Below, one piece after another: positions 2,188 to 64,000 of a stretch of DNA of 64,000 nt. The translations under genes were made by a program, and so were the position numbers. The stretch is from Alphaproteobacteria bacterium (GTDB lineage Bacteria; Pseudomonadota; Alphaproteobacteria; Rhizobiales; Xanthobacteraceae): the NCBI GenBank assembly GCA_005884765.1, contig VAZV01000129.1, forward strand, positions 17,687-81,686. The letters are read 5' to 3'. The notes below the pieces were generated by a model. The model was not told where the DNA came from and did no database searches. It saw only the letters and a program-made list of their open reading frames with translations. Each line of letters begins with the position of its first letter. Within the stretch, counting starts at the first letter, position 1.

Positions 2188-3123
2188 ATGACGCAGGCCG
2201 GATACCCGCGCGATCTCCGCGGCTATGGCCGCAACCCGCCAGATCCACATTGGCCCGGTCATGCGCGGGTCGCGGTTCAGTTCGTGGTGAATTTCGAGGA
2301 AGGCGGCGAGAACAACATCCTGCATGGCGACCCCGCTTCCGAAGCGTTTCTATCCGATGTTTTGGGTGCGCGGCCCTGGCCGGGCCAGCGTCATGCCAAT
2401 ATCGAATCGATGTTCGAATATGGTTCGCGCGCCGGCTTCTGGCGGCTGTGGCGCATGTTTACCGAGCGCGAGCTGCCGACGACCGTGTTCGGCGTTGCCA
2501 CCGCGTTGAAGCGCAATCCCGACGTGGTCGCGGCCATGAAGGAAGCGGGCTGGGATATCGCGAGTCATAGCCTGAAATGGATCGAGCACAAGGACATGTC
2601 GGAAGCCGAGGAGCGGTCGGAGATCGCCGAAGCGATCCGCGTTCATACCGAGGCGACCGGCCAGCGTCCACTCGGCTGGTACACCGGGCGATCATCGATC
2701 AACACCGTGAGACTGGTGATGGAAGCGGGCGGGTTCCTGTATTCCTGCGATTCCTATGCCGACGATCTACCCTATTGGATCAAGGGACCGTCAGGGCCGC
2801 ATCTGATCATTCCATATACACTTGATGCCAACGACATGCGCTTCGTCAACGCGCAGGGTTTTGGCGGCGGCGATCAGTTCTTCACCTACCTGAAGGACAG
2901 CTTCGACGTGCTCTACGCTGAAGGCGCGACGTCACCGAAGATGATGTCGGTCGGCCTGCATTGCCGGATCGTCGGCCGGCCCGGACGCGCGGCGGCGCTG
3001 ATGCGGTTTCTCGATTATGTCTTGAACCATGAGCGGGTGTGGGTGCCGACGCGGCTGCAAATCGCGCAGCATTGGCACGCCAATCTTGCGCATCTTGCCG
3101 CCAACGCGCCGGCGCTCGGATAG
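2188..3123 (+). CDS. puuE: Allantoinase PuuE (polysaccharide deacetylase-type)
   Basis: 311 aa. N-terminus GYPRDLRGYGRNPPDPHWPG..VAVQFVVNFEEGGENNILHGD is characteristic of PuuE. Confidence 0.9.
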   Translation: MTQAGYPRDLRGYGRNPPDPHWPGHARVAVQFVVNFEEGGENNILHGDPASEAFLSDVLGARPWPGQRHANIESMFEYGSRAGFWRLWRMFTERELPTTVFGVATALKRNPDVVAAMKEAGWDIASHSLKWIEHKDMSEAEERSEIAEAIRVHTEATGQRPLGWYTGRSSINTVRLVMEAGGFLYSCDSYADDLPYWIKGPSGPHLIIPYTLDANDMRFVNAQGFGGGDQFFTYLKDSFDVLYAEGATSPKMMSVGLHCRIVGRPGRAAALMRFLDYVLNHERVWVPTRLQIAQHWHANLAHLAANAPALG

Positions 3124-3134
3124 CTGAGGCACAG

Positions 3135-4022
3135 ATGTCGCAGCTCAGCCTTTCCGATCTTAACGCGTGCAGCAAGGACGACTTCGTCGCAGCGCTTGCC
3201 AATATCTTCGAATATTCGCCGTGGATCGCACAACAGGCCGCCGCCGCGCGGCCATTTGCAGGCGTCAGGGCGCTGTTTTCAGCGATGAAGATTGCGGTCG
3301 ATCGCGCGCCATCCGAGCTTCGATTGACCCTGATCAAGGCGCATCCCGATCTCGCCAACAAGACCCAGCGCGCCGCCGGCCTCACGGCGGAATCCAATGC
3401 CGAGCAGAACAGCGTCGGCCTCGACCGTTTGTCGGACGCCGAATATGAGGCGTTCGAGCGCGTCAACAACGCCTACCGCTCGAAGTTCGGTTTTCCCTAT
3501 ATCGTCTGCGTCCGGCGTCAGACCAAAGATTCCATCCTGCGCGACTTCGAGCGACGGCTGCCGAACGATGCGAAAACGGAAATGCAGACATCGCTTGAGG
3601 AAATCTGCCGGATCGCAGCGCTTCGCCTCGATCAGCTTGTCGCCTCCGAGGACAAGTTGAACGTGCATGGGCGGCTGACGACCCACGTGCTCGATACCCA
3701 TGGCGGCAAGCCGGCAGCGGGTATTGCAGTCGAGCTGACCGAATTATCCGCGCTGGGCGTGAGCCGCGTGGTGACGCGCACGGTCACCAATTCGGACGGC
3801 AGGACGGACCAGCCGTTGATCGGCGGCCGGCCGGTGCCGATCGGGCGTTATGAGCTGACGTTTGGCGTCGGGAAATATTTTGCCGAACGGCAGGTGGCGG
3901 TATCCGACCCGCCGTTCCTCGATCAAATTCCGCTGCGCTTCTCGGTCAGCGAGCCGGAAGGCCATCTCCACGTGCCGTTATTGGTCACGCCCTGGAGCTA
4001 CGCGACCTATCGCGGCAGCTGA
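3135..4022 (+). CDS. Bifunctional OHCU decarboxylase / 5-hydroxyisourate hydrolase (uraD-uraH fusion)
   Basis: Start trimmed to the ATG at 3135 (MSQLSLSDLN). The N-terminal half is OHCU-decarboxylase-like (KAHPDLANK, FGFPYIVCVR). The C-terminal half is transthyretin-like (GRLTTHVLDT..G.PA) and ends in the HIUase tetrapeptide YRGS. Confidence 0.88.
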   Translation: MSQLSLSDLNACSKDDFVAALANIFEYSPWIAQQAAAARPFAGVRALFSAMKIAVDRAPSELRLTLIKAHPDLANKTQRAAGLTAESNAEQNSVGLDRLSDAEYEAFERVNNAYRSKFGFPYIVCVRRQTKDSILRDFERRLPNDAKTEMQTSLEEICRIAALRLDQLVASEDKLNVHGRLTTHVLDTHGGKPAAGIAVELTELSALGVSRVVTRTVTNSDGRTDQPLIGGRPVPIGRYELTFGVGKYFAERQVAVSDPPFLDQIPLRFSVSEPEGHLHVPLLVTPWSYATYRGS

Positions 4023-4060
4023 GTTCTCGCTTCTCAATCTGGCGGCCGCATTTTTGCCGG

Positions 4061-4105
4061 CAAGGCTTTTTCGGGCAAGGCTTTTTCGGGTAAGGCTTTT
4101 TCGGG
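4061..4105. repeat. Three tandem copies of a 15-bp unit (C/T)AAGGCTTTTTCGGG
   Basis: Units read directly at 4061-4075, 4076-4090 and 4091-4105. They are followed by TGAGCCTTGCC, which can pair with AAGGC of the units. Confidence 0.9.
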
Positions 4106-4200
4106 TGAGCCTTGCCTGTTGGCATGAACGTTGCTCATTATCGGTTCAAGCCGGGCGGTGCCAAGCCTCGCGATTTGCCTAAGACCGGAGGGTTTTGCGC

Positions 4201-5040
4201 GTGCCGCTGATCAAGAACAGATATGGAAAAGGCCGCGTTCGCGTGATGCGGATCCATCGCGACGGCGAACGGCACGAGGTCAGCCAGCTCAGTGTCAAGG
4301 CGATGATCGAAGGCGATTTCGCCCGCACTTACACCCACGCCGACAACTCCGACACCATCTCGACCGACACCATCAAGAACGTCGTCAACGTTGTCGCGCG
4401 AGAAAATACCGGCCTCTCCAGCGAGGAGTTCTGCCAGGTGCTGGCGAAGAAGTTCCTCTATACGTATCCGCAGGTGTCGTCGGTCGCGATCACGGCGCAT
4501 GAGACGAAATGGACGCGATTGAGCATCGGTGGCAAGCCGCACCCGCATAGTTTTGTTCTCGATAGCAACGGCAAGCCGTTCGTCGAAGTGAACGCGGCGC
4601 GCAAGGAAATCTCGACGAGCTCGGGCATCGACGGCTTTGCGTTCATGAAGTCGACCCAGTCGGGCTGGGAGAAATACCTCAAGGATCGCTACACGACGAT
4701 CCCCGAGACCAACGACCGTATGTGCGCGACCTCCATGGTGGCATCCTGGAAATGGTCGGCGAAGCCTGCGAGCTATCCCGTAACCAACAAGAAAATCCTC
4801 GACACGCTGCTGGAGGTGTTTGCGACGACCTATAGCGCAAGCGTGCAGGACAGCCTGTACCGGATGGGGGAGGCGGCGCTTGGCGCCGTGCCGGAAATTT
4901 CAGAGATCAGCATGGCCTGCCCGAATATGCACTTCATCCTGATGAACCTGTCGGCGTTCGGGCTCGATAACAACAACGATGTGTTCCTGCCGACTGACGA
5001 GCCGCACGGCCAGATCGAATGCACCGTGGGGCGGGACTAG
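4201..5040 (+). CDS. pucL: Factor-independent urate hydroxylase (uricase)
   Basis: Uricase-like N-terminus NRYGKGRVRVMRIHRDGERHEV. GTG at 4201 lies 8 nt after SD GGAGGG (4187-4192), whereas the TTG at 4195 is too close to the SD. Confidence 0.88.
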   Translation: MPLIKNRYGKGRVRVMRIHRDGERHEVSQLSVKAMIEGDFARTYTHADNSDTISTDTIKNVVNVVARENTGLSSEEFCQVLAKKFLYTYPQVSSVAITAHETKWTRLSIGGKPHPHSFVLDSNGKPFVEVNAARKEISTSSGIDGFAFMKSTQSGWEKYLKDRYTTIPETNDRMCATSMVASWKWSAKPASYPVTNKKILDTLLEVFATTYSASVQDSLYRMGEAALGAVPEISEISMACPNMHFILMNLSAFGLDNNNDVFLPTDEPHGQIECTVGRD

Positions 5041-5043
5041 CCG

Positions 5044-5166
5044 CGTCATTGCGAGCCAACGGGTCGCGCGAATGCGCGCCCGATGCCAGGCTCCGCGAAG
5101 CAATCCAGCGCTGCATCGTCATTAGGAAGGCTGGATTGCTTCGTCGCTTACGCTCCTCGCAATGAC
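5044..5166. repeat. REP-like nested-palindrome intergenic element (copy 1)
   Basis: Outer arms GTCATTGCGAG...CTCGCAATGAC and inner arms GAAGCAATCCAG...CTGGATTGCTTC. A near-identical inverted copy lies at 36103-36223. Confidence 0.85.
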
Positions 5167-5197
5167 CAAAGCTGGGAGCGCGCAGCATTCGAACGCC

Positions 5198-7927
5198 TCA
5201 CTCCGCCTTCCCGAATTTCTCGTGCAGCAACGGCCATAGCCGGTCCGGCTTGAACGGCACGGTCGTGAAGCGGATACCGGTGGCATCGGCAAGCGCATTG
5301 CCGAGCGCGGCGGCCACCGGATTATAGGGGCTCTCGCTCATCGACTTGGCGCCCATCGGCCCCAGCGTGTCCGACGTATCGGCGAAATAAACCTCGGTGC
5401 GCGGAATGTCCGCAAACGACGGCAGGTGATAGTCGCGGAATCTCGGATTGATAACGCAGCCGCCGTCATCGATCACCATCTCCTCGTACAGCGTCGCGCC
5501 GAGCGACTGCGCGACGCCGCCTTCGACCTGTCCGCGACACTGCATCGGGTTGGCGACGCGACCGGCGTCGGCGGCCTGCACGCTTTTGAGGATCTTGATT
5601 TGGCCCGTCCCTTTGTTAACGGCGACGCAAAAGCCTTGCACGTTGAAGGCGACCGAACGCGGCGTTCCGGCTGAATTCCCGGTCGCTTCGAGCGTTGTTC
5701 CGCGTTCGCGCGCGGACTTGGCGATTTGTGCGAACGACAAACGCTGCGTTCCGCAGACGGCGGATTCCCGCTCAAGGACACATGTGCCGGCATCGGTTGC
5801 GGCCATACCGGATGCCAATGCGATGAGATCGGCGGCGAGAGTTTCGGCCGCGGCCTGCGTCGCGCGTCCGGCGACGAAGGTTCCGGCGCTGCCGTAAGCG
5901 CCGGTGTCGTGGCCGCCATGCGCAGTGTCGGATTGCTTTAAGTGAATTCGCTCGACGGAGGTCGCGAGCACGGTGGCGGCGATCTGGCGATGGACCGTTG
6001 AGGTCCCGTTGCCGAACTCCGCCGTCCCGACCGTCAGATTGAAGCCGCCATCGTCGCGCAGCGAAATCCTGGCATCGGCAAAATGCCCGTCGGGCGGCAC
6101 GGTGTCGATCATCGTGAGCGCGATGCCATCACCGATAAGCCAGTCGGCGGAAAGATCAGTCTTTGGCGCGTCGGCTTGCATCGCGCGTTCGACGAGAACG
6201 AGACACTGGTCGAGCCCATAGGAGCCGTAAAGCACGTCATGATAGCCGGTGCCGGGAGGCGACAGCATGGGGTCGCCAGGCTTGACGATGTTGCGGCGGC
6301 GCATTTCATAAGGGTTGATGCCGAGCCCTTTGGCCAATTCGTCGATCGCAGCCTCTACAGCGAAGAGGGCCTGCGGCAAGCCGTAGCCGCGGAAGGCGCC
6401 CGCCGGCACGGTGTTGGTGTAGGCGACGACGGCGTCGACCTTCTTGTTTGCGCAATTATAGACGCCGAGACTTTCACCGCAGGCGTGGAACAGCACCGGG
6501 GCCGCATGGTTGCCATAGGCGCCGGTGTTCGAGAGTACGTCGAGCTGCAGCGCCTTTAGCTTGCCGTCCTTGTCCGCGCCCGCTTTCACCGTTACGCGCA
6601 TCGGATGCCGCGTCGATGTCGAGATGAATTGCTCCTCGCGGGTAAGCTCGAGCTTGACCGGCCGGCCGGTCTTGAGCGCCGCGAGTGCCAGGATATCCTC
6701 GACGAACATTTCCTGCTTGCCGCCGAAGCCGCCGCCCACGCGCTCGCAAAACACACGGACCTTTTCCGGAGCCAGCTTGAAAATATCGACGAGCGCACGC
6801 CGCGTCAGGAACGGTACCTGCGTGGAGGAACGGACATGCAAAATGCCCGACGCATCGACCCAGGCGAGGCCGCCATGCGTCTCCAATGCAGCGTGCTGGA
6901 CCCGCTGCGTGGTGAACGTTCCTTCATAGGTGACGGCGGAGTTCGCAAGCGCTGCTGCGACATCGCCGTATTCGCCATGGGTTTCCGCCACGATGTTGCG
7001 TGGGCCGTTGGTAACGCGATGCGCAACCGTCTTGTCGCCGTGCAGGACCGGCGCACCCGGCGCGATCGCCTGCGTCGGATCAAACACCGCCGGCAATATT
7101 TCATACTCGACCTTGAGACGGCGGCACCCTTCTTCGGCGGCGGCCTCGGTCTCCGCGACCACGGCCGCGATCTTCTGCCCGACGAAGCGAACGACTTTGT
7201 CGAGCACGCGCGTATCGTCCGGATCCATCCACGCCTTCTCGTGTCGTGCGGTGGAGAACAGCAGATCCGGTGCATCCTCCGAGGTCAGCACCGTCCGCAC
7301 GCCGGGGACGGCAAGCGCCGCGCTCTTGTCGATCGAGATGATCTTGGCGTGCGGATGGGGTGAGCGCTTCAGCTTGATGTGCAACAGGCCTTCGATCGCG
7401 GTATCGAAGGTGTATCGCGCCGTGCCGCGTACCACCTGCGGGCCGGCAGGGGCGGGGAGGCTGCGGCCGAACGCGGCGCCGGCTGCGGCATCCTCGATGT
7501 TGGTCTTGCCGTCCAGCGCATCTTCGATCGAGCGATAGCCGGTGCAGCGGCAGAGGTTTCCCTTGAGCGAAGCGCCAAGGTCCTGCCGTTGTGCCTGGTT
7601 AAGCGATGCGCAGGTCATGATCATGCCCGCGGTGCAGAACCCGCATTGAAAGGCTTGGGCGTCGAGGAACGCCTGCTGCATCGGGTGGATGCCGCCGTCG
7701 CCGGCGAGGCCTTCGATGGTGGTCACGGCATGGCCGTCGGCGCGAAAGGCCGGGATCAGGCAGCTATGCACCGGCTCGCCATCGATCAGCACCGTACAGG
7801 CGCCGCAATCACCGGCGTCGCAGCCTTTCTTGACGCCGAAATGCCCGAGCTCGCGCAGGAAGGTTCGTAGGCATTGCCCGGCCCGCGGAGTTTCGGAAAA
7901 CGCCTTGCCGTTGATCTCGAAGCTCAT
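5198..7927 (-). CDS. Xanthine dehydrogenase family protein, fused [2Fe-2S] and molybdopterin-binding subunits
   Basis: Start trimmed to MSFEINGK (ATGA overlap with the upstream FAD subunit stop). FeS motifs GCDAGDCGACTV and CGFCTAGM..CRCTGY are followed by a ~750-aa aldehyde oxidase/XDH Moco domain. Confidence 0.9.
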   Translation of the reverse strand: MSFEINGKAFSETPRAGQCLRTFLRELGHFGVKKGCDAGDCGACTVLIDGEPVHSCLIPAFRADGHAVTTIEGLAGDGGIHPMQQAFLDAQAFQCGFCTAGMIMTCASLNQAQRQDLGASLKGNLCRCTGYRSIEDALDGKTNIEDAAAGAAFGRSLPAPAGPQVVRGTARYTFDTAIEGLLHIKLKRSPHPHAKIISIDKSAALAVPGVRTVLTSEDAPDLLFSTARHEKAWMDPDDTRVLDKVVRFVGQKIAAVVAETEAAAEEGCRRLKVEYEILPAVFDPTQAIAPGAPVLHGDKTVAHRVTNGPRNIVAETHGEYGDVAAALANSAVTYEGTFTTQRVQHAALETHGGLAWVDASGILHVRSSTQVPFLTRRALVDIFKLAPEKVRVFCERVGGGFGGKQEMFVEDILALAALKTGRPVKLELTREEQFISTSTRHPMRVTVKAGADKDGKLKALQLDVLSNTGAYGNHAAPVLFHACGESLGVYNCANKKVDAVVAYTNTVPAGAFRGYGLPQALFAVEAAIDELAKGLGINPYEMRRRNIVKPGDPMLSPPGTGYHDVLYGSYGLDQCLVLVERAMQADAPKTDLSADWLIGDGIALTMIDTVPPDGHFADARISLRDDGGFNLTVGTAEFGNGTSTVHRQIAATVLATSVERIHLKQSDTAHGGHDTGAYGSAGTFVAGRATQAAAETLAADLIALASGMAATDAGTCVLERESAVCGTQRLSFAQIAKSARERGTTLEATGNSAGTPRSVAFNVQGFCVAVNKGTGQIKILKSVQAADAGRVANPMQCRGQVEGGVAQSLGATLYEEMVIDDGGCVINPRFRDYHLPSFADIPRTEVYFADTSDTLGPMGAKSMSESPYNPVAAALGNALADATGIRFTTVPFKPDRLWPLLHEKFGKAE

Positions 7928-8751
7928 GACCGGCCCGCGCCCGCGAGTTCGGCGCGAATCTCTTCGGCAAGGCGCAAGGTCATGTGCTTGCGCCACAAAG
8001 GCTTGCCATGGATGTCGTCGTGATAGTGGCTGTCAGGGATGTGATGTGTGATCGCTTGACGCAGCTCGCCGCCGCCCGGAATTCTTGGAAATGACAATTT
8101 GACGGGGCGCACCGTCGAGGCCGTCACCGTCAGCGACAGCGCGCCTTCGCTATCGATACTACCGATCAGAAGTGCTGCCGAGCGGCCGACTGGCGTCAAC
8201 GATATCTGGCGAAAGGCCGAGCGTCGCCGGAGCGCTACCAGCGGAATATCGATCTGACGCAGGAGATCGCCCGATGAGAGCACGTTACGCTGATTGCCGA
8301 TAATGAAGTCGGCGACGCTGACCTGCTGTTCGCTACCGTCGGCCTTCCAGATCGTGCAGACGCCATCGAACGCCGATGTGAGCGAGATCATCGGCCCTGC
8401 CGGCAGCGACATGCAGAGATTGCCGCCAACGGTCGCGGTCTTCCAGATTTTGAAGGACGCGAGGAACGCCCGGCAGCACTGATTGATCAGCGGCGCGGCG
8501 AGCCAGTCGGGTGGGCATGGCAGCGCATCGAGTTGCGCGATCGTGCAGGTCGCGGCGATCGTAAGCGTGGTGTCGCCGACCGTCAGTGCCGGCCATTTCA
8601 GATCCGTGATGTCGACAAGCCGCCTCAGATGAGCTTGCGGCTCCGAGAACAGCCAGGTTCCGCCCGCGAGCCAAGCATCGCCTGCCGTCCAAACGGGCAA
8701 TTGCTCCCGGGATCGGGGGTGGGCGACCGCGCTGATGGTGTTCAAATCCAT
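7924..8751 (-). CDS. FAD-binding subunit of a molybdopterin dehydrogenase (CoxM/XdhB-like)
   Basis: ~275 aa from MDLNTISAVAHP. It has a GGTWLF..ATVGGNL FAD-binding-5-type pattern and is translationally coupled to the FeS-Moco gene. Confidence 0.82.
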   Translation of the reverse strand: MDLNTISAVAHPRSREQLPVWTAGDAWLAGGTWLFSEPQAHLRRLVDITDLKWPALTVGDTTLTIAATCTIAQLDALPCPPDWLAAPLINQCCRAFLASFKIWKTATVGGNLCMSLPAGPMISLTSAFDGVCTIWKADGSEQQVSVADFIIGNQRNVLSSGDLLRQIDIPLVALRRRSAFRQISLTPVGRSAALLIGSIDSEGALSLTVTASTVRPVKLSFPRIPGGGELRQAITHHIPDSHYHDDIHGKPLWRKHMTLRLAEEIRAELAGAGRS

Positions 8752-8900
8752 GGATACGCCAGTACTTACAACAAGATGCATCTCATGTAAGACGTCTTGC
8801 AAGACCGGCGCCAGTTGTTCGACCGATCGGGCTGGTCCTTGAATTGCAGGAACGGCGGTGCGCGTCGTCTAGCAATCCCGTCTCCGGGAGAAGGTTTAGC

Positions 8901-10250
8901 ATGATGGACCGAAATCGGGCGATCTGGATCAAAGATCCCTTGGGCATTCTCGCCGATGGCGCGGAGCGTGGCATTGTCGTCCAGGACGGCAGGGTTGTCG
9001 AGCTGGTGCCGAGAGGCCGCCAGCCGACGACGTCGGCGGCGTTCTTCGAGGCGGGCGACCACGTCGTGCTGCCCGGGCTGATCAACACCCATCATCATTT
9101 CTATCAGACGCTGACGCGGGCGCTGCCAGCGGCAATGGACCGCGAATTGTTCCCGTGGCTGCAGGCGCTGTATCCGGTATGGGCGCGGCTAACGCCCGAG
9201 CGGCTCGAGCTCGGCGTCACGGTCGCGATGTCGGAATTGCTGCTCTCGGGCTGCACCACCACGACCGATCATCATTATGTTTTCCCGGCCGGGCTTGAGG
9301 ATGCCGTCGGCATCGAGGTCGCGGTCGCAAAGCGGCTCGGCATGCGGGTGCTCTTGACGCGCGGCTCGATGAACCGCTCGCAACGGGATGGCGGCCTGCC
9401 GCCGGACAGCGTGGTGCAGGATGAGGACACAATCCTCGCCGACAGCGAACGCGTGGTTGCCAAACATCACCAGCGCGGCGAGGATGCCATGGTGCAGATC
9501 GCGCTGGCGCCTTGTTCGCCATTTTCGGTGACGACGTCGTTGATGCGCGCGACCGCGGCGCTCGCGGACCGGCTCGACGTCCGCCTGCATACCCATCTGG
9601 CGGAAACCGAGGACGAGAACAAATTCTGCGAACAGACGCATGGCTGCCGGCCGCTCGACTATCTCGAGCAATGCGGCTGGCTCAATGCGCGGACCTGGCT
9701 CGCCCATGGCGTTCATTTCAACGCAACGGAGATGAAGCGGCTGGCCCAGGCCAAGACGACGATCAGTCACTGCGCCTATAGCAATCAGTTGTTGGCGTCC
9801 GGTTGCTGTCCGGTTTGCGACATGGAAGCGGCGGGGGTCGCGATAGGGCTCGGCGTCGACGGCTCGGCGTCGAACGATGGATCGAATCTGATGCAGGAGG
9901 TGCGCGCGGCATTTCTGCTGCAGCGGGCGCGTTATGGCGTCGGCAAGGTGAGCCACAAGGACGCGCTGCGCTGGGCGACCAGGGGATCGGCGGCGTGCAT
10001 CGGCCGGCCCGAGCTTGGCGAGATCGCGGTCGGCAAGCGAGCCGATCTCGCGCTGTTCAAGCTCGACGAACTGCGCTTCTCCGGACACGGCGACGCGCTG
10101 GCGGCGTTGGTCTTGTGCGGGGCGCATCGCGCCGACCGCGTCATGGTCGCCGGCAAATGGGTAGTCACCGATGGCGCAATCGAAGGTCTCGATATCGCAG
10201 ACCTGGTCCGGCGCCACAGCGCCGCCGCTCGCGCGATGCAGGCGGGATAG
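8901..10250 (+). CDS. 8-oxoguanine deaminase (amidohydrolase superfamily)
   Basis: MMDRNRAIWIKDPLGI..VVLPGLINTHHHFYQTLTRA..LFPWLQALYPVWARLTPE..LLLSGCTTTTDHHY closely follows the 8-oxoguanine deaminase pattern I recall from Pseudomonas. Confidence 0.82.
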   Translation: MMDRNRAIWIKDPLGILADGAERGIVVQDGRVVELVPRGRQPTTSAAFFEAGDHVVLPGLINTHHHFYQTLTRALPAAMDRELFPWLQALYPVWARLTPERLELGVTVAMSELLLSGCTTTTDHHYVFPAGLEDAVGIEVAVAKRLGMRVLLTRGSMNRSQRDGGLPPDSVVQDEDTILADSERVVAKHHQRGEDAMVQIALAPCSPFSVTTSLMRATAALADRLDVRLHTHLAETEDENKFCEQTHGCRPLDYLEQCGWLNARTWLAHGVHFNATEMKRLAQAKTTISHCAYSNQLLASGCCPVCDMEAAGVAIGLGVDGSASNDGSNLMQEVRAAFLLQRARYGVGKVSHKDALRWATRGSAACIGRPELGEIAVGKRADLALFKLDELRFSGHGDALAALVLCGAHRADRVMVAGKWVVTDGAIEGLDIADLVRRHSAAARAMQAG

Positions 10251-52794: not shown

Positions 52795-53103
52795 TCGGCC
52801 CCCGCGGTATCGCCGGAGCCGCGCCTTGCAATTTGTCGTCACGTCCCGCCTGTCCCATAAGGCCTTTTGAGGCAAGGATCGAATTGTCCGCGCAGGGCGA
52901 AAGAATGTCGGACCTGGGGTCAGTTGCGGGCCAATTATCAGCACCGCCACAATCGTTAACACCGCCACAATTTCGACGCGGTGCCGAACCGCCCGCTCCC
53001 TGAATCGTTCGTATAGCCGCTTTAAATGCTGGCTAGCCAAGGACATAAGGAAAGGTTCGTGGATCCTCGATCCGCGAGCCGCGTATCGCCGTGGGAGCAT
53101 CAC

Positions 53104-54156
53104 ATGCGTCGCGTAGCCCTCGTCGCTATTTTATTCGCGCTGGTCATCCCCGCGCGTGCCGCAGTCACGCCGGAAATCGACCCGCGCGCGTCGCTTAGTG
53201 TGGTCCAGCAGTGGATCTACAACTACCGCGCCAAACCCGATTACGCCCATGTGCCTGCGGCGGTGCGGGTGCTGTTTCATTCGCAAACATTCAAGGAGCC
53301 GGAGAATGCTGGCATCTATCTCGGCTTCATCGCCGGTGCGATCGGATCGAACCCCGCGAAGGCCGAGCAGCTCATCGACAGCTTCCTTCCCGTGCCCCCG
53401 GAAGACGAATGGGTGATCGTCCGCGCCATCGCCTATTCGGGGCTGCCCGACTGGCGGAATTTGTTGCGCAGGATAGCGCCTAAAATGCCGGGGCGCAGGG
53501 TGATGATCGACAGCTACCTTGCCGGCTCGCTGCCGACGTTGACCGACATCCCGCTCGAGGAAACCAAGCCCGGGATGATGGACAAGCTGCGCGGCGTCTT
53601 CACCAAAAATCCTTTTGCCAAGGAAGAGAAGAAGCTGAATACGGTCGTTACTTATGCCGGAAACCAGGATCTTCTGGATACGCTTTGGGGCTATTACTTC
53701 GCGACCGGCTCGCACCTGCCAATCCTGCGCATCATGCAGATGCTGCCTTGGTCGAAAAGCCGCGACACCGTCGACAAGCTGACTGTCGGCAGCATGGCGC
53801 GCTATACGCTCGCAAGCTACGCCGTGCGCGATGCAGGTTTGCGCGAATTCTTGCGCAGCGAGCTGCCGAACCAGCCGGCGCCGATCAAGGCGCCGCTCAC
53901 CGAGGTGATCCAGGCTGCCGATACCGTGCAGCTCGGCGCCGTCCGCAAGGACGCGCTCGCCGCGGTCGAAGAGCTCAAGGCCAAGGGTTCCGACGCGCGG
54001 CGCAATCTCGACTTCTGGGGTCAGGTCGGCGTTGGCGCGGTCGCGCTCGGCTGCGTTTCGGCGGCAGCGCTGGGGCAGGTCGCGATCGGCATCCCCTGCG
54101 TGATCGGCGGTTCGGCCTCGCAAGGCCTACTGTCGTTCTGGGAAAAGCAGCAATGA
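53104..54156 (+). CDS. Hypothetical exported protein with a C-terminal Gly/Ala-rich hydrophobic segment
   Basis: Start trimmed to MRRVALVAILFALVIPARAA (signal peptide). The C-terminus is WGQVGVGAVALGCVSAAALGQVAIGIPCVIGG. Divergent from the BamA-like gene. Confidence 0.65.
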   Translation: MRRVALVAILFALVIPARAAVTPEIDPRASLSVVQQWIYNYRAKPDYAHVPAAVRVLFHSQTFKEPENAGIYLGFIAGAIGSNPAKAEQLIDSFLPVPPEDEWVIVRAIAYSGLPDWRNLLRRIAPKMPGRRVMIDSYLAGSLPTLTDIPLEETKPGMMDKLRGVFTKNPFAKEEKKLNTVVTYAGNQDLLDTLWGYYFATGSHLPILRIMQMLPWSKSRDTVDKLTVGSMARYTLASYAVRDAGLREFLRSELPNQPAPIKAPLTEVIQAADTVQLGAVRKDALAAVEELKAKGSDARRNLDFWGQVGVGAVALGCVSAAALGQVAIGIPCVIGGSASQGLLSFWEKQQ

Positions 54157-56618: not shown

Positions 56619-56909
56619 TCAATATTTGCCGCCGCTGCGGGTTTCGGTACCCGGGCTCGTATTTTGCTGGCCGGAACGATTGCGCGACATTCCGGTCGTG
56701 GTGCCGGACTTTATCTTGCTCGTCTTCATCTTGTGGGATGTCATGCTGGTCTTCATTTTATGGGATTTCATTCGGGTGCTGGTAGCGCCAGGTCCGACAT
56801 TGCCTTCGCTCGATGCGCCGGGGGCCGGTTGTGTCTGCGCCGGCGCAACCGACGTCATTCCCACCAGCGAGGCGACCGCGAGGGCCGAGAGTGCAAGCTT
56901 GGATAGCAT
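56619..56909 (-). CDS. Small secreted Ser/Thr/Lys-rich protein with SHKMKTS repeats
   Basis: Signal peptide MLSKLALSALAVASLVGMTSVAPAQ, and SD AGGAG. Confidence 0.55.
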   Translation of the reverse strand: MLSKLALSALAVASLVGMTSVAPAQTQPAPGASSEGNVGPGATSTRMKSHKMKTSMTSHKMKTSKIKSGTTTGMSRNRSGQQNTSPGTETRSGGKY

Positions 56910-57682: not shown

Positions 57683-58513
57683 TCAGTAGTCGCCGGGGTT
57701 GGCGATCATCGGCCGTGTGGTCTGCGCCGGCGCAAGTTCGCTGGTTGCACTGTCACCTAGGAATTGGTCGAGCGTCGCCTGGATTTTCTCTTTCACAGAA
57801 TCAGGGCCGCGATCGCTCAGCTGGGTATGCTGCGCGCCGGTATTGATGATATCGATACCTCCCGACTTGGCTTGCTCCGGGGTCGGCAGCACGCCGGGAT
57901 CGGTTCTGAAGTTCGGGTCCTTCGAGCGAAACGAAAGGATCTTCAAGTTGTCATTGAGGACGAATGGGACGCGCAGATTGTCCAGCGTGATGACCTTTGA
58001 CACCAGTTCGGGATGTTGTTTGGCGCAATACATCGCAACGTCACCGCCATTGGAATGACCGACCAGTGTCAGGTGATCGTAATCCGCATTGGGCTGCAAT
58101 TTTTGCAATTCGCCGACGACGAACAGGATATTGGCTTCGCCGCGTTGGTAAACGCCGATGCGGCCAACATAGGGCATCCCAACCTTGGTCATCAGCGGCG
58201 GATCGCTCGGCAGGTCCTGCTGGATGCTGGCAACCAGATAGCCGCGCGCCGCGAGCACGTTGGCGAGAAAGGAATATTCGGTGTTCCTGACAGTATTGCC
58301 GTTGCTGATGATGGCGATCGGAAGTTTCCAGAAGCCATTGTTCGCCTTCATCTCGTAATCGCGACGTACCGCGAGATCGACCGAGACCGGCCGGTGCCGC
58401 GTCGCGTCAAAGAGGTTCAGCGTTTGGTGCCGGATGGCCCATTTGCTGATGGCAAAATATTCGCCGCCCGCGAGCACGCAAAGGCAGGCAAACATCGCTA
58501 TTGCCCTCTTCAC
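57683..58513 (-). CDS. Alpha/beta hydrolase (lipase/esterase-like) with an N-terminal anchor
   Basis: GTG start preceded by the strong SD AAGGAGGA. Nucleophile elbow LVGHSNGG. N-terminus VKRAIAMFACLCVLAGG. Confidence 0.78.
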   Translation of the reverse strand: MKRAIAMFACLCVLAGGEYFAISKWAIRHQTLNLFDATRHRPVSVDLAVRRDYEMKANNGFWKLPIAIISNGNTVRNTEYSFLANVLAARGYLVASIQQDLPSDPPLMTKVGMPYVGRIGVYQRGEANILFVVGELQKLQPNADYDHLTLVGHSNGGDVAMYCAKQHPELVSKVITLDNLRVPFVLNDNLKILSFRSKDPNFRTDPGVLPTPEQAKSGGIDIINTGAQHTQLSDRGPDSVKEKIQATLDQFLGDSATSELAPAQTTRPMIANPGDY

Positions 58514-58670
58514 CGCTTCCTCCTTCTCACCTCTAGTTGAACAGATGGTGATTGGCCGTGACAGGTCGAGCCCGCCTACTGCGGGAACTAAATTAACTTT
58601 AGGCAAGTTTGGTTCCCTCGCGATGACATGCGGCACAGAAAAGTACCTGCACAGCCGGCTGGAACCCGAT

Positions 58671-60479
58671 CTAGAGACAATGCCCGCGCGCGATCTCCGG
58701 GCACAGCTTGAGGGCGTTCGACAAGGAGAACAGCAGGCGCGCGCTGCGCCGTTCATTGTCCGGCGCTCGGTAGCTCAACGGGAACGCCACGCCGATATCG
58801 GCCCGCAAGTCATCCCCCAGGAAGAAGCGCACGCCGGCGCCCGCCGAAGTCAGTGAAAGACCCTCGTTGATGCCGTAGCCGTCATTCCAGGCCGCGCCGG
58901 CGTCGAAGAAGCCATAGATCTGATAGCCGCTCAGATATCGAAAGTTCAACTTCTGATCGAAACGCAGTTCGAACGAGCCGGCAATGCCGTTGTCGCCACT
59001 GATCTCGGCGCTGCCATAGCCTCGCCCAAAATTCGCACCTCCGAGATAGAACTGTTGCGAAGTGAACAACGGGCCGGAAGCGACCTGGCCGGCCCCCGCC
59101 AGCTTTACCGACCAGACGTCGGATAGTGCCTGATAGCGCGTGAACCAGAGGTCGAGAACGGAGAAATTGGCCGACGCACCGTCGTGCGACACCAGATCCT
59201 CGCCAACGCGCGAGGCGCCGAAAATGTCGAGACCCTGACGGTACGCCAGCGTCACGTAGTTGTTGCCGCCGATATTGTCCTGCAATCGGTAATCCGAGGT
59301 CAGGCCCAGGGTGCGGATGTGATCGTTGTAGATCGGGCCGAACATGTCGCGTTCCGAGACGTCGCTGAAGTCGGCGGCCGCAGTGAGCGTCAACGAAGAT
59401 CGCTGCGATTGCAGCGCGGCAATGCTGGCGCGGACCTCGAAGGCTTCGGTCCTTGTGGTGTCGTTGTAAAGCCGCCTGTCGTCGCCGGGCCGGACGTCGC
59501 TATAGAGCGCAGACGTACCGATCCGCAACCCGTCGGTGCCGACCGGGACATCATAGGACAATCGGCCGAAAGCAAGCTCCCTGGGATCGTTGGCCGTGGT
59601 CGAGAGGTTGAGCGCCAGCGTGTCGCCGGGCAGCAGATAGGAATTGAATGCGGCGGTCGCATAGGTCTGCCAAGGGCCAACCGATGACGAACCTAGATTG
59701 TCGATCCCCAACGAAGTGAAGATGTGCCAGGTCTTCACGTAGACGACGAGGCGGAAGCGGCCGGTCGGGCCGCCAATCTCCTCGATCGCCGTGTCGACGA
59801 TGCGAACTCCCGGCCGGCCGTTGACGAGGAGCAGTTGTCGCTCCAGTGTGGCCAGTCGCGAGGGGCATTCGGCGAGCAGCGGGCTCAGCATCGGCCGGAT
59901 CCCGAACTGCTCCGCGCCGTCGCCTCGCAGCGCTACTTCGGTGACGCTGCCTTCGATCACCTGGATACGAACCCGCCCATCTCTGATGTCCTGCGGGGGA
60001 ACGATCGCCCGGCTCAGGTGAAAACCGGCCGCCCGATAGAGATCGCTGATCGCACCCGCAATCGCCGCGAGGTCGGCCTGAGAGACTTTCTTTCCGAGAT
60101 AAGGTTGATAGGTCCCTATCAACTCCGCCCGTGGTATCGCCCCGCCGCCAGTCAGGACAACGTCGCGTAGTTCGAAGGACGGTCTGGTATCGGCTCCGAC
60201 TGCCGGCCGCGCAAGCCGCGGCAAATTTGGGCCGGGCCGGGTTGGCTGCGTCTGACCGGATTCCAATGCGTCAAAGCGCCGTTCGGTCTGTCTCGGATCA
60301 AAGCCTGGCTGGTTCGCCTGCTGTGCATTTGATGGCGGCAAGCCGAACGATACCAGGGCCAGGCTTGTCATAACGAGGCTAGCGGTACGGCGATGCCGCT
60401 TTGCCACCGCCGGCAGCGTTCCCTGCCCGTAGTTCAACGGAGCGCGCCCCGCGAACCCCGAGGGTATGGTTAGCCTCAT
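58671..60479 (-). CDS. ShlB/FhaC/HecB-family two-partner-secretion transporter (TpsB)
   Basis: 602 aa. ShlB-type POTRA region (FELRDVVLTGG..YLGKKVSQADLAAIAGAISDLYRAAGFHLSRAIVPPQDIRDGRVRIQVIEG), then a 16-strand-like barrel with YLGG.NFGRGY and a terminal aromatic region. Confidence 0.88.
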   Translation of the reverse strand: MRLTIPSGFAGRAPLNYGQGTLPAVAKRHRRTASLVMTSLALVSFGLPPSNAQQANQPGFDPRQTERRFDALESGQTQPTRPGPNLPRLARPAVGADTRPSFELRDVVLTGGGAIPRAELIGTYQPYLGKKVSQADLAAIAGAISDLYRAAGFHLSRAIVPPQDIRDGRVRIQVIEGSVTEVALRGDGAEQFGIRPMLSPLLAECPSRLATLERQLLLVNGRPGVRIVDTAIEEIGGPTGRFRLVVYVKTWHIFTSLGIDNLGSSSVGPWQTYATAAFNSYLLPGDTLALNLSTTANDPRELAFGRLSYDVPVGTDGLRIGTSALYSDVRPGDDRRLYNDTTRTEAFEVRASIAALQSQRSSLTLTAAADFSDVSERDMFGPIYNDHIRTLGLTSDYRLQDNIGGNNYVTLAYRQGLDIFGASRVGEDLVSHDGASANFSVLDLWFTRYQALSDVWSVKLAGAGQVASGPLFTSQQFYLGGANFGRGYGSAEISGDNGIAGSFELRFDQKLNFRYLSGYQIYGFFDAGAAWNDGYGINEGLSLTSAGAGVRFFLGDDLRADIGVAFPLSYRAPDNERRSARLLFSLSNALKLCPEIARGHCL

Positions 60480-60613
60480 GATTTTTCATAGTATTTTTAT
60501 GCTTAATGAAACGTTAATGCGGTCGCCGAACTTGGCGCTGTGCGATAATTCTATCTTGAAACATTTCCAGTAAGCCTCGGAGCCAGGCAATAAAACTGGC
60601 GGAGGCGCACCCC

Positions 60614-61729
60614 GTGTATCAGGCTGGCATGTTGCGGTGCATCTTAGCGATGGCACTGGTTCTGGGAGCAGCCTCGAGCGCACGCGCCGCCGAGAACGGG
60701 ACGTGGTCGGTTAGCAAATCCTCCGGCGAAGTGTGGGTCACCACGACGGGCGCCGAGCCGGTTTCCTTCAACCACGAAGAGATATTGAAGCCCGGCGACA
60801 CTATCCGCACTGGGCGCACTGGGCGCGTTTTGCTGGTACGCGGTGAGGAAACGATCCTGATCTCGCCGAATTCAGTGATCGGTTTGCCGGTGGAGAAGAA
60901 AGAAGGGCTGTCGACGACGATCGTTCAACAGGCCGGTTCGATCCTTCTTGAGGTCGAGAAGCGCAACGTCAAGCATTTCGAAGTCGAGACGCCTTATCTT
61001 GCCGCTGTCGTCAAGGGCACGCAGTTCAGCGTAACCGTCAAGGCTGCCAGTACCAGCGTCGACGTGCGCCGGGGGCAGGTCGAAGTTTCGGATTTCAAGT
61101 CGGGCCAGATCGCGCAAGTCATGCCCGGTCAGGCCGCGACCGCCTTCGCGCATGGCAAACCCGGTCTTGTTCTGAGCGGCTCGGGCACGTTCAATCCGAT
61201 CGAACAAGGCAAACCGCGCCCGTCCTCGATCGATCGCATCCCTGTGCCCAAGTCCGGCCTCTTCGCTCCCCGCAACGCCGCCAATGAGAAATTCATCCAC
61301 GCACTCGGCCATATCGGCGCGATCAGGATGGGCGCTGCGCCGCCCAAGCCGCAGCAAGCTTCCGGTGATACGTCCGGCGGGCCGAAGGGATCGCGCATCT
61401 CGACCGCGCTCGGCGAAGTCCGTCTGAATTTTCAGAAGGTCACGCACGGCCTCGCCCACCAGGTCGTCGCGCCCAGCTCGGCGAAGAATGCATCGGGTAA
61501 CGACACTGTATGGAGCGACGCCAAAGCAAGCGCAGGCGGCGCGAATGGTAATTCCGCCGCGAGCGCTAGCTCCGACGCGGCAAGTAGCAGTGGCGCGACC
61601 ACATCGTCAGGCATCGCATCGACCGTCGCTTCCGTCATCGCTCCGGCAAACCAATCCGGAAATGGCAACGGCGCAAACGGCAACGGCGGGGTCGGCAACG
61701 GCAACGGCAGAGGAAATGCCAAACATTAG
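60614..61729 (+). CDS. FecR-domain secreted protein with a low-complexity Ala/Ser/Gly/Asn tail
   Basis: GTG 8 nt after SD GGAGG. Signal peptide ..LAMALVLGAASSARA. FecR core LKPGDTIRTGRTGRVLLVRGEETILISPNSVIGL. The tail ends GNGNGANGNGGVGNGNGRGNAKH. Confidence 0.85.
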   Translation: MYQAGMLRCILAMALVLGAASSARAAENGTWSVSKSSGEVWVTTTGAEPVSFNHEEILKPGDTIRTGRTGRVLLVRGEETILISPNSVIGLPVEKKEGLSTTIVQQAGSILLEVEKRNVKHFEVETPYLAAVVKGTQFSVTVKAASTSVDVRRGQVEVSDFKSGQIAQVMPGQAATAFAHGKPGLVLSGSGTFNPIEQGKPRPSSIDRIPVPKSGLFAPRNAANEKFIHALGHIGAIRMGAAPPKPQQASGDTSGGPKGSRISTALGEVRLNFQKVTHGLAHQVVAPSSAKNASGNDTVWSDAKASAGGANGNSAASASSDAASSSGATTSSGIASTVASVIAPANQSGNGNGANGNGGVGNGNGRGNAKH

Positions 61730-61795
61730 CCGCTAATCGAGCGACGCGCGAAAGGGGGCGCACTTCGGCAGTACGAGGTGCGCAGGGGGACAAAC

Positions 61796-64000
61796 TTGAA
61801 GCAATACCGGCCACATATTCTTGTCGTGCTTGCACTGGCGGCGGTGGTGCTGTCCGGTTGGCACGGCGCAATCCGCAACGCTCTGACCGACCTGCGTTTC
61901 GCCTGGCAGACGCGCAACGCGAGTGGCGAGATCGTCATTGTTGCGATCGATGCCACATCGATCGAAATGATCGGAGTCTGGCCGTGGCCGCGATGGCTGC
62001 ACGCCGAGCTCATCAGGCGGCTAGAAAGCGCCGGCGTACGCGACATTGCATTCGACATCGATTTCAGCACGCCGTCCGAAGCATCGTCGGATCTGGATTT
62101 TGTCGATGCGCTTGCCGACGGCGGCGGATCGGTCGTCTTGTCGTCGTTCAAGCAACCCGGCAGCAATGCCACAGTCCACATTAATCGTCCGCTGAAACAA
62201 TTCGCCGATCATTCGTGGTCGGCAATCGTAAACGTCGCGGTCGAACCAGATGGGCTTGTCCGACATTATGCCTTTGGGGAAAGCCTCGCAGGGCAGCTTG
62301 TTCCCTCGATGGCCGCTGTGCTGGCGGGCCGATACGCGGAGCGCGGCATCCCCTTCCTGATCGATTTCGGTATCAGCGCCACATCGATTCCGAAAGTGTC
62401 CTATATCGACGTGCTGCGCGGCAAGGAGGACACGCTCGCAAATCTAAGGGGCAAGAAGATCATCGTTGGCGGTACGGCCCTGGAATTGGGCGATCGCTTC
62501 AGCATCCCAAACGGCCGGATCGTTTCGGGCCCGATACTTCAAGCCCTGGCGGCGGAATCCATCCTGCAGAACCGCACCCTGCACGCGACCTCCGACGCCG
62601 CCACATTGTTGGGGCTATGCGCCATTTCGCTGGTGATGTTGATCACCTGGCGCCGCCTCAGCGCAAGCCGGCGAGTTCTGCTGCTTGCCGCAATGGCCGT
62701 CTGCGTCGAAACCGCTGCGATCCTGCTGCAGACAGAAATGCCGCTCGTGCTCGACACCTCGCTGTTCCACACCGCGATTGCAGTCTACCTCGCCGCCATC
62801 GCGCTTGACGAAATCGATTTCAAGGATCTGCTGAGCCGCGTCGCCGAAAGCCGCTTTCAACGCATCGCGATGTCGCTGGGCGACGGCCTGATATGCACTG
62901 ACTCAAATTATCTGATCACAGTATGGAATCCCGGTGCGACCTCGATTTTCGGCTATCAGCGTGCGGAAATGATGGGTCGTCCGTTCGACACGATCTGCGC
63001 TGACGGCGGCGAAGGCATTTCTCCTTTTTCAATCCGCGATGCGGTGCGCGCGGATTCGCTGATGCCCGGTGGTAGGGTCACGGAATTCGAAGCACGCCGG
63101 AAGAACGGCGAAGCCTTTACGGTCGAGGCGTGCTTCTCCGGCTGGCAAGGCACCGACGAGGTGCAATACGGCGCGGTGCTGCGTGACATCTCGGTACGAA
63201 AACGCGAAGCCGAACGCATTCGGTATCTTGCGGAACACGACGTGCTTACTGGGCTTGCGAACCGAACGACGCTTCATGCCCGGCTCGAAGCGATGATCAA
63301 GGTAGCGGGCGAGCGATCAGGGGCGGCAGCGCTGCTCGTGCTCGGCCTCGACGGCTTCCAGCACCTCAACGACATGCTGGGCCATGCCTTTGGCGACCTT
63401 GTGCTGCGCGCTGTCGCGGAGCGGCTAAGCTCCGAAACAGGAGGCGAGGGCATCGTTGCCCGCCTTGGCGGCGACGAGTTTGCCATCGCCATTCCGCGCG
63501 GCGCCCACACCGAGGCGGTCAGGCAATTCTGCGAGCGGATTGCGGCTGCGTTCGATAACCCGCTGCCGGCGGGAACGCGGCTGCACCGCGTCAGCGTCAC
63601 TATTGGTGTGGCCGTTCATCCGGAGGGGGGGCGAACGGCGGATGAGCTGCTCGGCAACGGCCATCTGGCCCTCTGTCGTGCCAAGGCGGCTCGGCGCGGC
63701 GGCTATATCATATTCGAGAACTCCATTCGGCAGGAGCTTGAAGCGCGCCTGAAGCTGGAAGCCGAGTTGGCGCTTGCGATCGAACGGGAAGAGTTCGAGC
63801 TGTTCTATCAGCCGCAGGTCCGCCTGTTGGACGGCGGTCTGATCGGCGCGGAAGCGCTGATCCGATGGCGTCATCCGGAACGCGGTCTCGTTTCGCCTGC
63901 GGAGTTCATGCCGGTGGTGAATACTGCTTCGATTTCGGAGCGGATCGCGGATTGGGTGCTGGAAACCGCCTGCAGGCAGGCCAGGGCCTGGGAAATTGCC
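61796..64000 (+). CDS. CHASE2 - TM - PAS - GGDEF - EAL c-di-GMP turnover protein (3' end outside the window)
   Basis: This frame is open from TTG 61796 (or GTG 61778) to the window end and is absent from the ORF track. I translated it by eye: IVIVAIDATSIEMIGVWPWPR (CHASE2), DVLTGLANR and RLGGDEFAI (GGDEF), then GAEALIRW (EAL). Confidence 0.88.
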   Translation, partial: MKQYRPHILVVLALAAVVLSGWHGAIRNALTDLRFAWQTRNASGEIVIVAIDATSIEMIGVWPWPRWLHAELIRRLESAGVRDIAFDIDFSTPSEASSDLDFVDALADGGGSVVLSSFKQPGSNATVHINRPLKQFADHSWSAIVNVAVEPDGLVRHYAFGESLAGQLVPSMAAVLAGRYAERGIPFLIDFGISATSIPKVSYIDVLRGKEDTLANLRGKKIIVGGTALELGDRFSIPNGRIVSGPILQALAAESILQNRTLHATSDAATLLGLCAISLVMLITWRRLSASRRVLLLAAMAVCVETAAILLQTEMPLVLDTSLFHTAIAVYLAAIALDEIDFKDLLSRVAESRFQRIAMSLGDGLICTDSNYLITVWNPGATSIFGYQRAEMMGRPFDTICADGGEGISPFSIRDAVRADSLMPGGRVTEFEARRKNGEAFTVEACFSGWQGTDEVQYGAVLRDISVRKREAERIRYLAEHDVLTGLANRTTLHARLEAMIKVAGERSGAAALLVLGLDGFQHLNDMLGHAFGDLVLRAVAERLSSETGGEGIVARLGGDEFAIAIPRGAHTEAVRQFCERIAAAFDNPLPAGTRLHRVSVTIGVAVHPEGGRTADELLGNGHLALCRAKAARRGGYIIFENSIRQELEARLKLEAELALAIEREEFELFYQPQVRLLDGGLIGAEALIRWRHPERGLVSPAEFMPVVNTASISERIADWVLETACRQARAWEIA

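Follow-up and report, generated by a model that had tools for sequence, protein, structure and literature searches.

CHASE2 is a widespread sensor domain whose mode of input is poorly understood, and the members of the TpsB family are translocators. Our study concerns a locus in which genes for both lie beside the gene of a secreted FecR-domain protein, within a 64,000-nucleotide stretch (hereafter, the window) of an alphaproteobacterial genome of the Xanthobacteraceae (assembly GCA_005884765.1, contig VAZV01000129.1, positions 17,687 to 81,686 of the forward strand). The TpsB gene (58671-60479, minus strand, 602 amino acids) is transcribed divergently from the gene of a 371-residue FecR-domain protein (60614-61729, plus strand), which is followed by the gene of a putative inner-membrane CHASE2-PAS-GGDEF-EAL enzyme that runs past the window end (61796-64000, plus strand). 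The closest described system is the NsrA-CyaK pair of Sinorhizobium meliloti. In the reports on it, NsrA is presented as the outer-membrane receptor that the CHASE2 cyclases CyaK and CyaD1/D2 need for the plant uL2 signal, and nsrA is placed just upstream of cyaK (PMC7529298, PMC13001267); in one of them, the authors put only the barrel loops of NsrA at the surface (PMC7529298). We found that the pSymB gene immediately upstream of cyaK encodes a 1190-residue protein in which a leader and a FecR domain (66-160) precede TPR repeats and a barrel at the C-terminus, and that its stop overlaps the start of cyaK, whose product combines CHASE2 with a cyclase. Our analyses tip in favor of the three genes of the window encoding a three-part envelope sensor, in which CHASE2 would have the FecR protein as its partner in the periplasm and TpsB would dock or thread the C-terminal module of that protein.

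The window resembles NsrA-CyaK in having a FecR-domain gene immediately upstream of that of a CHASE2 enzyme and an outer-membrane beta-barrel in the system. However, the FecR domain, the TPR repeats, and the barrel of NsrA form one polypeptide, whereas the FecR protein of the window has 371 residues without TPR repeats or a barrel and is accompanied by a separate TpsB. In addition, the output of NsrA-CyaK is cyclic AMP (cAMP) rather than cyclic di-GMP (c-di-GMP), and it has neither the glycine/asparagine-rich (GN) tail nor the motif described below. The possibility that the NsrA barrel is TpsB-like was rejected: hhalign gave a probability of 0.6%, with no detectable kinship, and the barrel had no match among solved structures. 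Since the NsrA barrel has no detectable relation to TpsB, we regard the window system as an analogous split version built on a different barrel. The FecA-FecR-FecI and PupB-PupR systems share with the window the FecR fold (6OVK, 1e-5; 4M0N, 7e-7), which they employ in a periplasmic relay from an outer-membrane barrel to an inner-membrane signaling step. Unlike the FecR and PupR regulators, the window protein has no N-terminal cytoplasmic anti-sigma domain, no transmembrane (TM) helix preceding the FecR domain, and no STN subdomain, and unlike Fec and Pup signaling, the window system has no known link to iron and would have a CHASE2 enzyme as its inner-membrane partner. Neither an extracytoplasmic function sigma factor nor a TonB-dependent transducer was found among the neighbors in the window or in the Bradyrhizobium liaoningense locus.

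With two-partner secretion (FhaC/FhaB, ShlB/ShlA, and CdiB/CdiA), the window has in common the canonical TpsB domains and signature motifs. It differs in that the partner is a small protein with a FecR fold and with a candidate recognition element near its C-terminus; that no TpsA or two-partner secretion (TPS) domain lies nearby in about 160 loci; and that the triad transporter has an extra C-terminal Cys-loop. A FecR-CHASE2 pairing has been reported in the Burkholderia ‘BiofilmReg’ operon and in Pseudomonas aeruginosa PA4035-PA4036, where a LysM-FecR protein lies beside a CHASE2 kinase (PMC5192318). BiofilmReg departs from the window by having LysM on the FecR protein, no TpsB, and a histidine kinase output with a CreB-type regulator; our Pfam searches found no LysM, response regulator, or DUF4136 in the window, and just the FecR-CHASE2 pairing is common to both. 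A cAMP cluster of Campylobacterota likewise combines a FecR-domain outer-membrane protein, a TPR protein, and a CHASE2 cyclase (PMC9239204). Our literature search found no paper naming CHASE2 together with TpsB, POTRA, ShlB, or two-partner secretion. The FecR-CHASE2 pairing is thus already known, and the recruitment of TpsB and the tail-type rule presented below are apparently undescribed. A preliminary description of the window, made from its letters alone, had suggested that the three-gene association recurs elsewhere without functional characterization; the recurrence was borne out by about 130 further loci, while the second half stands only in part, in that no paper links TpsB to CHASE2 but genetic evidence exists for the analogous NsrA-CyaK pair.

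Special attention was given to the conservation of this arrangement. For the genome scan, each GTDB species was represented by one genome and searched with a profile made from 23 diverse FecR domains, and the best 80 of more than 599 matching stretches were kept, of which 76 loci were usable; they come from Bradyrhizobium, Bosea, and Pseudolabrys, together with Xanthobacteraceae, Hyphomicrobiaceae, and other alphaproteobacterial metagenome-assembled genomes. Because only the best 80 were kept, Bradyrhizobium dominates this set despite a deliberately distant first sequence, and the breadth beyond this genus comes from look-ups of representative proteins and from a metagenome scan seeded on a marine relative, whose best 80 loci were taken. 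The CHASE2 gene lies directly downstream of the FecR gene in 74 of the 76 usable genome loci, and TpsB lies divergently upstream of it in 71; the 80 metagenome loci present the same picture of the triad. Bradyrhizobium liaoningense has an identical order of four genes (the three above and an alpha/beta hydrolase), with a TpsB 72% identical to that of the window, and a Bosea plasmid carries the triad without the hydrolase, with a TpsB 47% identical. These counts support the reading of the FecR protein and CHASE2 as an obligate pair.

Our new finding on TpsB in this arrangement comes from the endings of the FecR proteins. The subfamily (3472 representatives at 50% clustering, 317 of them below 1e-30) has the leader and the FecR domain in common and presents two endings: a G/N-rich tail with a basic C-terminus, or a C-terminal TM helix followed by RRRxKxK. 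Many of the TpsB-linked, G/N-tailed proteins carry, always N-terminal to the tail, a motif of the general form hydrophobic-G-xxx-hydrophobic-D/N-hydrophobic-xxx-T-x-G-L, with the consensus LGEVxLNFxKVTxGL. In the window, it comprises residues 266 to 281 (LGEVRLNFQKVTHGLA; 61409-61456, plus strand), reads L266-GEVRLNFQKVTHGL-A281 in full, and lies between a Pro-rich linker and the GN tail; its co-occurrence with TpsB makes it a candidate docking or recognition motif for the POTRA domains of TpsB. Among the pooled loci, 131 motif-bearing FecR proteins have an adjacent divergent TpsB and one has none, while the proteins in which the regular expression did not find the motif have one in four cases and none in 15. 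The latter comprise 10 TM-tailed, 3 Rhizobium/Sinorhizobium-type, and 2 other proteins, and the motif is absent from all of the TM-tailed and Rhizobium-type ones; the four cases of TpsB without the motif are explained by a truncated gene, an artifact of an open reading frame (ORF) boundary, and two divergent variants of the motif. The motif occurs in only 5 of 5778 other ORFs. Fisher’s test gives p ~1e-16 for the link between motif and TpsB, taking as independent loci that are phylogenetically related. We consider the TM-tailed proteins more telling than this figure: in five unrelated flanking contexts, they always keep the CHASE2-PAS-GGDEF-EAL enzyme and have no TpsB within 8 kb. Moreover, a neighbor-joining tree of the FecR domains of 82 representatives contains at least nine switches of tail type. 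A specific tie of TpsB to the FecR protein is supported by the 131 to 1 distribution and by the constant position of the motif before the GN tail. As a separate observation, one locus (L115) has a single TpsB (4768-6510, minus strand) between two FecR genes (3764-4648 and 6676-7833, both plus strand), of which one encodes a hydrophobic, TM-like tail and the other the motif and a GN tail.

The FecR protein of the window matches Pfam FecR (PF04773) at 7.7e-12, above the gathering score, and no second Pfam domain was found in it. Its order is a leader (residues 1-25), a FecR beta domain (about 30-220), the Pro-rich linker, the motif, and the GN tail. The leader, a hydrophobic N-terminus ending ARA/AE, is of the cleavable type, and the FecR domain begins about five residues after it; signal peptides and membrane topology were assigned throughout by inspection, without a dedicated predictor. 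The last 80 or so residues form a low-complexity tail rich in A, S, G, and N (61481-61726, plus strand, ending GNGNGRGNAKH) that terminates in GNGNGANGNGGVGNGNGRGNAKH. Similar tails are kept as a compositional feature in homologues from Bradyrhizobium, Bosea, marine, and Rhizobium-type sources, and the C-terminus is always basic. An AlphaFold2 model built on 135 sequences places residues 30 to 220, approximately, in an all-beta fold with a predicted local distance difference test (pLDDT) above 90 and the remainder near 50, with the motif as a local peak (83) inside the otherwise low-confidence region; an earlier model from 29 close homologues (pLDDT 39.6) was discarded, the alignment of 135 sequences being needed. 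Foldseek searches with this model returned, besides the PupR structure 6OVK and 4M0N (BDI_1681) cited above, 4M0H at 7e-7, that is, solely FecR-type periplasmic domains and no TPS beta-helix. The subfamily profile (alignment A4) matched 4M0N at 0.0046. The FecR proteins also weakly resemble the Leptospira FecR-domain ‘adhesins’ Lsa33, LipL45, and Lsa19, far below the curated NCBIfam cut-offs, and no protein of the locus had an NCBIfam match above cut-off.

The TpsB of the window is a full-length ShlB/FhaC-type protein, as previously described: Pfam identifies POTRA_2 (residues 102-177, 1.4e-20) and ShlB (residues 254-552, 1.4e-22), both above their gathering scores, and the protein comprises in order a leader, an H1-like N-terminal segment, POTRA domains, and a 16-strand ShlB-type barrel. 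Residues 50-286 align with residues 11-236 of CdiB (6WIM), covering its N-terminal segment and POTRA region; residues 50-100, where an H1 plug helix with its linker would be expected, match the N-terminal segment of CdiB in this sequence alignment. Both FGRGY, the L6 motif, and FFDAG, the strand motif (F-x-D-x-G), are present, and FGRGYG occupies the L6 columns in 60 of 87 aligned TpsBs, with the same type of motif in TpsA-linked relatives. Judging from these residues, the transporter signatures of working Omp85/TpsB proteins are retained. The protein groups with other FecR/CHASE2-linked TpsBs and apart from TpsA-linked ones, with identities of 32-100% among the triad TpsBs and of 21-29% between these and TpsA-linked TpsBs. 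After the last barrel strand, it has a C-terminal extension, LKLCPEIARGHCL, with a Cys-x9-Cys pair (58674-58712, minus strand). Of 87 TpsBs that were compared, 67 have an extension of the form C-x(4-9)-C, all of them from FecR/CHASE2-linked loci, while the TpsA-linked proteins end directly in an aromatic residue without a Cys extension.

The CHASE2 gene begins at GTG 61778 or TTG 61796, that is, 48 or 66 nucleotides past the FecR stop, and its product contains CHASE2 (4.9e-37), PAS_9, GGDEF (3.7e-34), and the beginning of EAL in Pfam searches. The complete enzyme, available from a metagenome contig 99.8% identical to the window (L001), has 916 residues with intact GGDEF, EAL, DDFGTGYAS, and KID motifs; hydrophobic segments flank its CHASE2 domain, with three of them after it, ahead of PAS-GGDEF-EAL. 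The fusion and its distance from the FecR gene, both proposed earlier, are confirmed by these data. In distant triads (L109, located on a 585-kb TARA contig, L110, L118, and L120-L125), a HisKA-HATPase_c output replaces PAS-GGDEF-EAL, and the divergent TpsB, the motif-bearing FecR protein, and CHASE2 are all kept, with FecR domains 46-50% identical and TpsBs 32-40% identical. It is thus the sensor that is conserved as a unit, the output domain being GGDEF-EAL in some loci and a histidine kinase in others.

The data above show the arrangement of the genes and its conservation, the correlation of tail type with TpsB, the FecR fold, and the intact catalytic motifs. The envelope sensor that we propose would work as follows, where all physical contacts, the direction of signaling, and the crossing of the outer membrane by the tail are what we infer. 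The CHASE2-PAS-GGDEF-EAL enzyme would be an inner-membrane protein whose CHASE2 domain faces the periplasm. The FecR-domain protein would be exported by Sec, and its beta domain would remain in the periplasm as the obligate partner of CHASE2, acting as co-sensor or modulator. The client of the dedicated TpsB would be the C-terminal module, made up of the Pro-rich linker, the LGEVxLNFxKVTxGL motif, and the GN-rich tail, and only this module is plausible in that role: the POTRA domains would dock the motif, and the tail may be held in the barrel or passed through it. The FecR protein would thereby be tied to the outer membrane, giving a split, non-homologous equivalent of NsrA, and it would relay to CHASE2 a cue perceived at the cell surface or the outer membrane and so alter c-di-GMP turnover. 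Most likely, the FecR domain remains on the periplasmic side together with CHASE2, because sister proteins are TM-anchored to the inner membrane and because the corresponding domain of NsrA is its periplasmic N-terminus. The simplest account of the different architectures is that the part of the protein outside the FecR domain is an exchangeable anchor, known in the form of a helix in the inner membrane, a LysM domain, an outer-membrane barrel within the same chain, or the motif and tail together with TpsB. We suggest more tentatively, as a possibility that falls somewhat short of probable, that this TpsB clade has turned from a secretion device into an outer-membrane signaling arm, offering a TonB- and sigma-factor-independent route to CHASE2 receptors with c-di-GMP or histidine-kinase outputs, with a FecR partner that switches between an outer-membrane tether and an inner-membrane anchor.

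It is important to consider that several observations weigh against this proposal. First, we know of TpsBs solely as translocators; therefore, a pure docking role would be without precedent. Second, Rhizobium and Sinorhizobium plasmid homologues have the GN tail, lack the motif, and have no TpsB within 8 kb; consequently, the GN tail itself needs no neighboring TpsB, and it is the motif, not GN composition, that tracks TpsB. Third, one locus (L158) has a FecR gene with both motif and GN tail (2264-3394, plus strand), with neither a TpsB in the 2.2 kb upstream of it nor a CHASE2 gene downstream; this single exception may be a rearrangement or a mis-assembly. Fourth, strict monophyly of the triad TpsBs has a bootstrap of just 24/100, because one marine sequence is unstable. 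Finally, most sampled loci belong to one order (Hyphomicrobiales, mainly Bradyrhizobium), so the locus counts are phylogenetically inflated.

Classical secretion of an unusual cargo is the alternative that survives best, although we judge it rather unlikely. TpsB would then export the FecR protein in its entirety, either onto the cell surface or into the medium, and it could act there as an adhesin or an external sensor; alternatively, its loss from the periplasm could turn CHASE2 on or off in a form of regulated secretion. The family consists of translocators, the window TpsB keeps all the transporter motifs, and the strict correlation between TpsB and the motif suits a secretion signal equally well; moreover, Lsa33, LipL45, and Lsa19, whose similarity is weak and below cut-off, are named surface adhesins in NCBIfam. 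Nevertheless, close homologues tether the FecR domain to the inner membrane by their C-terminal TM helix and still lie beside CHASE2, and the FecR domain of NsrA is N-terminal to a barrel of which, according to its authors, only the loops are at the surface (PMC7529298). Furthermore, the FecR protein has no TPS domain and no beta-helix fold, and its candidate signal is C-terminal, whereas those of TpsA proteins are N-terminal. For these reasons, we prefer the reading in which the FecR domain stays in the periplasm and TpsB engages only the C-terminal module.

A second alternative, which we consider improbable, is that TpsB is an orphan that serves the hydrolase or a distant cargo and is tied to the FecR gene by a shared divergent promoter, that is, by co-regulation without contact. 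The preliminary description had noted the absence of a TpsA, and this is borne out: HMM (hidden Markov model) searches found no ORF with a TPS domain in the whole window, past its end in L001 or L019 (in L001, the gene after the CHASE2 enzyme is an arginase, not a TpsA), or in the 160 scanned loci, of which the genome loci were searched to +-10 kb. As a control, the same HMM/ORF pipeline recovered the TpsAs beside TpsBs of Azospirillum, Thalassospira, Burkholderia, Nostoc, and Acaryochloris. The ORFs of at least 500 residues in the window encode molybdenum cofactor oxidoreductases, a MASE1 kinase, an LTXXQ protein, BamA, TpsB, and the CHASE2 enzyme. The hydrolase (57683-58513, minus strand, 276 residues), proposed earlier as a possible cargo, lies 157 nucleotides downstream of TpsB on the same strand, as in many Bradyrhizobium genomes, and TpsBs beside non-TPS proteins exist elsewhere, for example next to a Mesorhizobium PG_binding and beta-lactamase protein. 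The hydrolase has a GTG start, a GGAGG Shine-Dalgarno sequence, a hydrophobic N-terminus, a GHSNG nucleophile elbow, and a weak match to Abhydrolase_1 (8e-6). However, only 33 of the 80 genome loci, each of them Bradyrhizobium-like, have it next to TpsB, and Bosea, other Hyphomicrobiales, and the marine triads lack it, which speaks against it as cargo; it is probably a lineage-specific neighbor and not a part of the module. Co-regulation, in turn, leaves unexplained the loss of TpsB in exactly those cases where the FecR protein has a TM anchor instead of the motif. The idea that the adjacency is a functionally meaningless historical accident of one lineage draws on the dominance of Bradyrhizobium and its relatives in the sampling, but is hardly credible given that the arrangement is still found where TpsB identity has fallen to 32%, occurs in marine metagenomes as well, and survives an exchange of the output domain, and that TpsB tracks the FecR tail type through repeated switches.

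These results indicate for CHASE2 a FecR-type obligate periplasmic partner that comes in interchangeable anchoring forms, one of them tied to a dedicated TpsB, and they offer three handles on CHASE2 input: the 15-residue motif, the tail type, and TpsB. If the proposal is true, this would be, to our knowledge, the first known case of a TpsB serving a small client without a TPS domain in signaling rather than in secretion, and it would bear on type V secretion biology as well as on the control of c-di-GMP in Alphaproteobacteria of soil and sea, Bradyrhizobium among them. The TpsB-FecR-CHASE2 pairing suggests a little-studied route by which envelope signals could reach c-di-GMP or kinase signaling.

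Further cases were considered in our search for comparable loci. A supposed occurrence of CHASE2 in cyanobacterial TpsB clusters was not borne out, as the Nostoc and Acaryochloris plasmids carry TpsA-TpsB-CHAT clusters with TPR kinases, and a Ralstonia TpsB beside a GGDEF-EAL gene was set aside for having neither CHASE2 nor FecR. On plasmid pAB510c of Azospirillum sp. B510 (L008, 5106-9695, plus strand), an operon encodes a 233-residue protein, a CHASE2-adenylate/guanylate cyclase, and a TpsB. The 233-residue protein is not FecR-like (hhalign, 0.2%), and the TpsB of this operon groups with TpsA-linked ones; therefore, we did not count this operon as the same module, and it may represent an independent recruitment of TpsB to a CHASE2 receptor. 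In Mesorhizobium (pWSM1497, L010), a TpsB (7953-9668, plus strand) directly follows the gene of the 720-residue PG_binding_1 and beta-lactamase-family protein mentioned above (5681-7843, plus strand), which has no TPS domain; this may be a further example of a TpsB whose client is not a TpsA. In Caulobacter crescentus, five neighboring genes, CCNA_00635-00639, are repressed together by the small RNA AbnZ, and their published labels are a CHASE2 receptor, a hypothetical protein, a TPR protein, and two ‘heme:hemopexin-binding proteins’ (PMC11724286, Table 1). The last label is also borne by one of our tblastn matches to TpsB. On plasmids of Bosea and Rhizobium, FecR-CHASE2 loci repeatedly have genes for DUF1236 and BON-domain proteins next to them (L007, 1225-3241; L011, 1748-7633; L013, 14199-15010).

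Returning to the window, Pfam searches and an ORF check located all the elements of the preliminary description, namely TpsB, the intergenic gap, the FecR protein with its leader and GN-rich tail, the CHASE2 enzyme, and the hydrolase. The gap between the divergent TpsB and FecR genes (60480-60613, 134 bp), presumed to be a shared promoter region, is indeed AT-rich, with 45.5% GC against 61.7% across the whole window; scans of this region for sigma-70 promoters, terminators, and EcfG-type promoters gave nothing above chance. Two further proteins of the window, without Pfam matches, are one of 376 residues with a hydrophobic, leader-like segment (53026-54156, plus strand) and one of 96 residues with a leader-like N-terminus and KMKTS repeats (56619-56909, minus strand).

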